NCBI GenBank assembly: GCA_040954595.2
Contig: CM082586.2
Location: forward strand, 3,888,349-3,952,348
Direction: 5' to 3'
Length of the DNA stretch: 64,000 bases
Source: Balanoglossus misakiensis
Lineage: Eukaryota > Animalia > Hemichordata
Shown here: piece by piece, positions 9,201 to 12,200 of the stretch
How the letters are laid out: each line of letters begins with the position of its first letter
How positions within the stretch are numbered: position 1 is the first letter of the stretch
Translations under genes and position numbers: made by a program
Notes under the pieces: generated by a model
The model's database searches: none
The model's input: only the letters and a program-made list of their open reading frames with translations
What the model was told of the DNA's origin: nothing

Positions 9201-12200
9201 TGACTTGTTGGGTGCTGTGAGTCCATGGAACACTGCGGAAGTCTTGTCTTTATTCTGGAGTATGCCTGTTGAAGACTTGTGTATGCCACAGTTAGAAAGG
9301 TCACCTCAGAATTTACAAATAGACACATTTTCCTACAGATTGAAAAGAAAACTGGACAATTTCATCAGTCCCCATGTGGTCCGGTTTAGACAAGCTTTAC
9401 AGTCCAACGAAAACTATAATTTTTTTTTACCTTCTAACACTGGCATATAGATGTCATGTATGTGTGATAGATTGTCTTGTGTCTGATTGTAACTTAAAAT
9501 TTTTTTTATATTTTTCTATCACCTTATACTGTATCATTCCAGTCTATGTCTATTTCTCGTCGCCCCTTCTTTTGTGTGTAATGTCTTGGATGGAGCATGT
9601 GTTCAGTGACACAGCAGATGTGTATGACAGCAGAGGAAGCCTTGTGTGTCATATTACTACACACTACATCATGGCTGACGGAATGATAGAATGACAAAAA
9701 AAAACATGTCTCGACTTTGTCTGTGGTCATTGTCTACTCTTCTCTTCATGGCAAAAACTAAAAGCTACTGCATGGAAATACATTCTTTGATTTGTCAGTG
9801 TTTTATTTTTGCTGGCAGTGTTGGTTTTTCGAAGCTTATTTTAGCGTTGAGATATCTGTGCAGGGGGTACAACCCATAGAGTATGAGATCAACACAGGAG
9901 CGATCACCCTCAGATGTACAAACTGAAGCGACATGTATATTCTGCAGGAGAGGATACAATACTAGTCTTGTAATCTTAGAGGAGATGAAGTCTTATTCGG
10001 ATAAAGGGTCCAATGCCAACCGGTCCATGTAAAAGATAGGCTTGTACACAAATTGTGAAGTAGTTCAATTTCTAGCCGGCATGACTTGAAGGTGGAGACA
10101 TTATGGTGCTGGACTCACTGTCAAAACTGGAAAATCATCATGATTTTACACAAGCATTTTAACATAAAAATAAATTGGTCTGGAATTTTTGTGTACTGTC
10201 AGAGAGAGCGTTCTGTGCTCATCTATCTAGACACTCTACTTCTGATTATTTCTCTGGTCCTGTAAGATTGGATGACAGATGGAATTGAGGAATATAGTAT
10301 TACAACCTGTAGTAAATGGAATATTAAATTTCCGTCCTTCGAGAAACAAAAATGTCGCATTAAAATTTAAAATGTCAATTTAAGTGACAGCCTTCTGGAC
10401 ATAAAGTATTAAATGTGTGACTTCAGGGCGTGCATGGGATACTTTTATTCTGTGCCATGTATTAAATTTAAAAATGAAACATTGCACGTTCTGTCTCTCT
10501 TGAAAGAACACTTGTAAATGGCTGTAAGTCTCAGCAAGGGGTATACCCAATACCTGTGGAACATAATGTCATGTTATATTGCAAATAATTGGATGAAGCC
10601 AGTGAAATGCTGTGTAATGCAATATATTACAAAAAAATGTAATAGAAGAGAAAGCTGTATTTTGAACTAGTAAATTAAAATGAAATGTTCATTTCTGAGC
10701 TCGCCAATATTCAGCTCCCTTTCAAGCAATACATACATACATTGTAGGGGATATGCCAATCCTTTCAAAAGGATTGTTGCTTATCATTTTAACTTATGAA
10801 AATTTCATATTTGCATCATGAATGAGTAAAGTCTTATCATAACCTTCTGAGTAGTCGAAAGATGACTTTGCCAATACTCCAGAAATATACCCATATTTTC
10901 CCTTGTTTTATTTCACAACATTGGTCGGTATCACGTAACAACACCCTGAGTTATAATATCATTTCACTGTCGTACTTCCTGTGTAATTTTCACCTCTGCC
11001 AGTAAAAATGTCTTGAAACAACAGCACTATTCACTCTGAATTCGGATCAAGTGTACATCCAAGTCATGATCACTGACATACATCGAACAACATTCCATGT
11101 AGTAGCATTGAGTTCTGCTGTGGTTCTGACTCCCCCGTTGAATCGTTTGTAGATTGTGGCTATTTTATGCACAAAGGCTGGAATGGTATCACTTATGCAG
11201 ACCTTTCTTCCACTGAATACGACTAAACAAACACCCAATACTCACTCTTATTATTACTTTTCCCCCCCTCGGTGCAAAAACTCACAGCGCCATGTGTTTG
11301 TACAGCTTTCTTCAAAAATTGCTATTTGTATTTCACCAGTTTTGAAATGCCAACAGCAAATTGTGTGTAATCCCAATCCATTATTTTCCGTTGCGATTCT
11401 CTCGACGAGATCAATTCTGGAGAAAAAAAATGGAAGGAAAAAAAATGAATTAAAAAAAAACTAACCGGACGGATATAAAAAATTTGATATTGTGTTCTTC
11501 TCATGTAACTTGTTTTTTGTGTGTGGTACTGTATTTCTTCTTTCTTACATAGCACTGGTCATCAGTCAACAACTAACAAGTGAGTTTTACAAAGTATTTC
11601 ATATCTTTTTAAAATTTGATTTGACGAGCAATCAAACACTTGTGCGCAATTGTTCCTATTTGTTTCGAATGAAGAAAACTCTGCATAAGTTGAAAATAGC
11701 CCTTTTTTTTAAAAACTTTCTTCGTCTTTTTTTTCTTCGTTATTTTTTTTTTGCCCGTCCATATTGAAATGAGTGGCTGACAATACTGCATTGCATTTTA
11801 AAACTTATGCATGTTGGATGTAATACGCTGGTTTGTCTTTTTTTCCTTTGTTTATGTTTTGCTTTCCATTGTAGCAGTGGACATCATTCAGGGAACAACA
11901 GCAAGTGAGTGCACTATATACATTCTTTAGTTTTCAACCTTGTTCTTTACCTATTTTCATTCTTGCAGCTTCTCTTAACTCCCATTTGAATGAATCAGGT
12001 AGATAATAAATTGCAGCTGCTGTAGTTTGGTCAGGTGTTCTGCGACTAGAATTTTGTAAATTTAAAAACACGTGGTCATACAATTTTTTATAGCATTCAC
12101 GTTCACAATGTAGAATACTGAAAAGAGTCCAGCAAAAATGTATTACTGGTTGCACAGTGGTAAAAACCAGAGCAATACTTAACCAAGCAAAATTAACCCA

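Follow-up and report, generated by a model that had tools for sequence, protein, structure and literature searches.

The analyses presented here indicate that the last intron of an Argonaute (AGO) gene in a 64,000-nt stretch of Balanoglossus misakiensis DNA (contig CM082586.2, positions 3,888,349 to 3,952,348 of the forward strand; this whole stretch is hereafter the window) harbours two short segments, A and B, which, judged from sequence comparison, are almost certainly real alternative exons. They very likely act as cassette microexons that would lengthen the eukaryotic insertion (EI), a loop of PIWI, and we show from aligned protein models that B is conserved across hemichordates and echinoderms. 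The splicing variation is real, old and apparently undescribed, in a well-studied regulatory loop, and the isoforms are already present, unremarked, in RefSeq models. As the original prediction had supposed, a full-text literature search, most subscription papers being outside its coverage, gave no account of alternative exons within the AGO EI; AGO names have no occurrence in the six supplement files of the Esrp paper PMC5703972. The features on which the argument draws are the following.

1425..1647, + strand: PAZ-region exon with the motif D-S-x-R-V, read from the translation and matched to human by spacing alone
8624..8823, + strand: penultimate AGO coding exon (end of PIWI), with a Pfam Piwi match; aligns to human AGO2 758-823
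8824..14218, + strand: last AGO intron, 5395 nt, containing both microexons
11460..11552, + strand: putative acceptor region of exon A, with a branch-point-like ACTAAC motif at 11460, an AG-free zone of more than 98 nt and a pyrimidine tract
11553..11579, + strand: microexon A, 27 nt, adding TGHQSTTNN; TAG acceptor, donor CAA|GTGAGT; matches Glandiceps and Saccoglossus inserts
11808..11813, + strand: TGCATG motif between exons A and B, present but common
11875/11878..11904, + strand: microexon B, 30 or 27 nt (B30, B27), adding (S)GHHSGNNSN; tandem TAG/CAG acceptors, same donor as A
14219..14333, + strand: last coding exon, carrying the ladder equivalent to S828/S831/T834 and the stop codon

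The coordinates, acceptors, donor, phase and peptides originally proposed for A and B all held on re-reading of the window. Both segments are stop-free and phase-2 symmetric, and both have the anatomy of cassette microexons (3-30 nt, canonical AG/GT borders, frame preserved). Moreover, a filter for short in-frame exons (pyrimidine fraction at least 0.7, donor match at least 7/9) retained A, B30 and B27 alone over the whole last intron, admitting one extra candidate at a looser threshold and five more at the loosest, and gave no candidate on the reverse strand of that intron. When the intron was shuffled 500 times with dinucleotide content approximately kept, two passing donors appeared in 5 shuffles, one in 66 and none in 429. 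A and B had also been said to resemble each other, and the DNA likeness of A to B30 indeed has a score that none of 5000 shuffles reached; on that account, and with a shared phase and an identical donor, tandem duplication is likely. The further claim that both resemble the constitutive segment stands weakly for B30, where 39 of 3000 shuffles reach the score (a borderline result), and falls for A (888 of 3000). The intron itself, as had been noted, is far longer than the other 16 of the 17 AGO introns in the window, which measure at most 1245 nt.

The gene to which these segments belong is represented in the window by its 3' part, comprising 18 constitutive coding exons between 253 and 14333 that join into one uninterrupted reading frame coding for 789 residues. 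When the last exon served as query, three proteins were found among seven candidates, the best being the AGO of the enteropneust hemichordate Glandiceps talaboti, so that the window most likely belongs to another acorn worm; the window protein is identical to its isoform X7 at 767 of 789 positions (97%), to a partial Saccoglossus model at 476 of 503, and to amphioxus and echinoderm proteins at 86% and about 80%, respectively. The 97%-identical ortholog carries N, L1, PAZ, L2, MID and PIWI (Pfam), which places the gene in the microRNA class of Argonautes (AGO clade), and the window exon matches human AGO2 with an E value of 1.8e-39. Residues are present at all four positions of the slicer tetrad, located with motifs that we take to be those of the tetrad.

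The isoform models of the ortholog bear on the status of A and B. The Glandiceps cluster has nine members, seven Glandiceps RefSeq isoforms and two Saccoglossus entries. Isoforms X1 and X3 carry A with B30, X2 carries A with B27, X4 has B30 alone, X5 A alone, X6 B27 alone, and X7 skips both, so that X1-X7 comprise all six forms predicted from the window, the choice between tandem acceptors included. Peptide A is identical between the two species (9/9) and peptide B differs by one H>L change (9/10). The Saccoglossus model has three inserts of nine residues (NQGYSGLSD, IGHPSTTNN and GHQSGNNSN). Automated RefSeq isoforms rest on transcript alignments. In a six-frame scan of the whole window the Glandiceps A insert found its best match in A, and Glandiceps and Apostichopus inserts singled out A or B; urchin and crinoid inserts reached at best five identities, tied or elsewhere, and did not single them out. 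A third, upstream microexon resembling NQGYSGLSD was not found in the last intron by the splice filter or by word search.

With-and-without pairs extend to echinoderms, and together with the Glandiceps forms they bear out the proposal that the segments are alternative; inclusion and skipping in these orthologs are read from annotation models. The counts come from a profile search, of which the best 120 of 424 matches were listed, supplemented by cluster look-ups, and describe ranked lists rather than an unbiased sample. In the urchin cluster a B-like HQSG[NT]NSN is present in 8 of 13 members and missing from 5, and Lytechinus pictus, L. variegatus and Strongylocentrotus each have both forms. 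The B-like peptide is included in four of five isoforms of the sea cucumber Apostichopus, in each of the five sea-star models that are full-length (one more is truncated) and in two assembled contigs (P0071, P0151). In one crinoid cluster (S)PGHESPTGN is optional and stands in register with A (4/6 with, 2/6 without), and the other cluster has no insert (3/3). Within the core H-x-S-G-[NT]-N-S-N both serines are kept across hemichordate, urchin, sea-star and sea-cucumber sequences. A metagenome scan with the exon-B pattern gave two loci, which we attribute to chance, since neither has an AG acceptor where the pattern matched and neither resembles AGO.

The same position holds unrelated inserts in mites, spiders, Daphnia (8/8), barnacles, a millipede, Priapulus, Owenia and others, and in spiders the insert is optional (6 with, 7 without and 2 incomplete of 15 listed). 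Inserts from Daphnia and Tubulanus (P0102, P0177) open with SGEGS and are partial duplicates of the start of the last exon, S828-equivalent serine included; by their sequence they appear to suit the role of a duplicated CK1 start site better than A or B. A further insert upstream at the same junction is seen in relatives P0127, P0134, P0150, P0152 and P0155 (Saccoglossus and echinoderms), with the sequences NQGYSGLSD, GYNGGSET, YDHDS and GYV and, in crinoids, a longer form; it suggests that the ancestor had a third microexon, one that was not detected in the window.

At the end of the penultimate exon the last intron divides a Ser codon that corresponds to human AGO2 S824. Since this exon aligns to human residues 758-823, the inserts lie downstream of the S824 equivalent and inside the EI, directly after the D823/S824-equivalent residue, in agreement with the assignment of the loop to the human S824-S834 region. 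In human AGO2 the EI spans residues of about 820-837 (PMC9154749; this and the other papers named by PMC number are cited here for part of their text). Inclusion takes the loop from 21 residues to 30-40 (a gain of 9-19) and its Ser/Thr content from 5 to 7-12 (a gain of 2-7), and the S828-S831-T834 ladder remains intact in every splice form. AlphaFold2 predicted the structure of Glandiceps X1 with low confidence along its whole length (mean pLDDT 48), and that model was set aside.

In the human protein, phosphorylation by CK1alpha starts at S828, proceeds to S831 and then reaches varied third sites; the consensus of the kinase is pS-x-x-S, the acidic residues upstream are dispensable, and S828 itself is non-canonical (PMC9154749). 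Target release grows additively as phosphates accumulate and depends on total charge, with an effect of about 7.5-fold on the off-rate (PMC9154749). CK1alpha docks on PAZ, so that the disordered EI has to reach the docked kinase (PMC13041839), and the spacing of D-S-x-R-V in the PAZ-region exon is that of the human docking residues D252/S253/R255/V256 (residues from PMC13041839). We suggest that CK1alpha docked on PAZ would still begin at the S828 equivalent, that an insert would displace the S824 equivalent by 9-19 residues and alter the tether from the PIWI core to the S828-equivalent serine, and that it would supply extra, non-canonical phospho-acceptors, the result being an isoform-dependent total charge and target off-rate. 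Considering that human target release scales with total phosphate charge, such a tuning role is fitting, and we put at about an even chance the proposal that the inserts alter the extent of phosphorylation and the speed of target release through the phospho-release cycle. The inserts themselves are best read as altering tether length and charge capacity rather than as a copied CK1 module. The original prediction had invoked duplicated Ser/Thr phospho-modules, and this part is not borne out: only the A+B30 form gains an i,i+3 Ser/Thr pair, and because primed (S-x-x-S) pairs barely increase, the inserts are not copies of the S828-S831-S834 ladder.

Several observations weigh against a role in the release cycle. 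No new i,i+3 Ser/Thr pair arises in four of the five inclusion forms, so that a duplicated primed ladder is missing from them. The five existing sites of human AGO2 are probably not all used at once (PMC9154749), and for this reason the extra serines may add nothing. The S828/S831 ladder is partly lost from the constitutive loops of sea cucumber and urchin sequences, in which B is kept, and B may therefore serve another purpose. All 15 amphioxus and all 15 Mytilus sequences listed (each of 26) have the plain loop. The isoform comparison, moreover, covers mostly automated RefSeq models, the underlying reads lying outside it. In the sea cucumber constitutive loops (P0134, P0071) there are no serines at the S828 and S831 positions, and the optional exon therefore provides two of the six loop Ser/Thr residues.

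The erosion of the ladder in sea cucumbers and urchins strengthens two other explanations, both of which accept the exons as real. It is somewhat improbable, in our view, that they are functional by adding a separate short linear motif, H-x-S-G-x-N-S-N, for another kinase or partner outside the CK1alpha cycle. The conserved B serines stand four residues apart (S-G-N/T-N-S) in the 10 typical-B carriers among 14 sequences examined, a spacing that suits GSK3-type priming better than pS-x-x-S; the conservation of His, Gly and Asn, which a plain spacer would not need, and the persistence of B beside an eroded ladder point the same way. However, no priming site lies at the right downstream distance (five residues separate the last serine of B from the S828 equivalent), the motif has no known partner, and the core resembles the native H-x-S-G context of S831. 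That the exons are nearly neutral, a disordered surface loop and an old phase-2 intron tolerating insertions while conservation reflects splicing signals, we hold to be unlikely. The unrelated inserts at this same point in so many lineages agree with it, as do the many lineages without any insert, 148 of 338 fetched proteins having a plain 47-residue tail; yet the B peptide and its optional status persist over hemichordates and several echinoderm classes, whose split dates back more than 500 million years, and A is unchanged between the window species and Glandiceps.

The remaining alternative is that, in the window species, A and B arose by chance or are dead pseudo-exons. The few shuffles with two passing donors allow for coincidence, but the splice sites are intact, the tandem-acceptor choice is that of Glandiceps, and the peptides are nearly or fully identical to the spliced inserts of a 97%-identical ortholog, so that we regard this as highly improbable. 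Retaining the tether-length and charge-capacity reading, we tentatively propose, at somewhat less than even confidence, that up to three optional microexons, kept since the hemichordate-echinoderm ancestor, set the length and phosphate capacity of the EI loop as a splice-controlled dial on the turnover of microRNA silencing, which several lineages of arthropods would have reinvented independently at this intron.

As to how inclusion is controlled, an AG-free zone of more than 98 nt with a pyrimidine tract precedes A and B30 and is found at 2 of 13 constitutive acceptors. A UGC near the 3' splice site is absent in A and present in B, and also occurs within 40 nt of 8 of the 13 constitutive acceptors; TGCATG has three copies in the last intron and ten in positions 1-20200. 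The TGCATG at 11808 and the TGC in the tract of B thus exist as described, but neither is distinctive, and the neural control of SRRM3/4 or RBFOX type derived from them is not upheld, the motifs failing to discriminate and the echinoderm models mostly including the exon. Strictly neuronal use seems disfavoured because inclusion is the majority state in echinoderm models and is seen in an NP-type Strongylocentrotus record and in the two assembled contigs; neuron-restricted inclusion is accordingly doubtful.

The EI phospho-cycle has so far been viewed as a conserved switch that does not vary. A set of natural isoforms whose only differences are the length of the EI and its count of Ser/Thr residues offers a test series for loop reach versus total charge as the determinant of the RISC off-rate, and suggests that splicing could let cells modulate the overall strength of microRNA silencing. 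In the sea urchin both plus and minus forms are annotated and methods for knock-down in embryos are established, which makes the question testable.

Elsewhere in the gene, VSQ is encoded at 3635-3649, and five of seven Glandiceps isoforms gain this three-residue VSQ through a second donor; the option has seemingly been lost in the window species, since the second donor position reads ATAAGT. At 4946-4960 paired GTAAGT donors lie 9 nt apart, the downstream one adding VSL as in the Glandiceps X3 model. Intronic minisatellites occur at 13449-13631 (period 31), 4550-4791 (period 24) and 7990-8165 (period 21). A probable 5.8-kb AGO 3' UTR (14334-20146) ends near an AATAAA at 20141 and contains two 81-nt copies, 90% identical, at 14915 and 17191. 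From about 20533 on the + strand, the next gene resembles the complex I 51-kDa subunit (NDUFV1), one exon matching PF01512 with an E value of 1.3e-4, short of the curated cut-off.

Finally, considering known systems, the human AGO2 EI with its CK1alpha/PP6-ANKRD52 cycle (PMC9154749, PMC13041839) shares with the window gene the same loop, an S828/S831/S834-like ladder and the PAZ docking spacing; solved human sequences have the plain loop, whereas optional exons add 9-19 residues here, and the term 'splic' does not occur in PMC13041839. The nearest precedent is shrimp Ago1A/B (PMC3510085), an alternative in-frame 81-nt PIWI insert in a microRNA-class Argonaute whose isoforms show tissue- and infection-dependent expression; that insert differs in being crustacean and 27 residues long, and the text of PMC3510085 cited here does not link it to phosphorylation. 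SRRM3/4 (eMIC) neural microexons (PMC8797185) resemble A and B in size (27-30 nt), frame preservation, AG-free zone, pyrimidine tract and, for A, a branch-point-like motif, and the features listed there for eMIC targets fit the long AG-free zones and branch-point-like motif found here. Unlike them, A has no UGC near its acceptor, the UGC of B is not distinctive, and echinoderm models mostly include the exon. Arthropod AGO1 inserts in database models use the same junction, with and without pairs occurring in spiders, and, their sequences being unrelated, are probably of independent origin.
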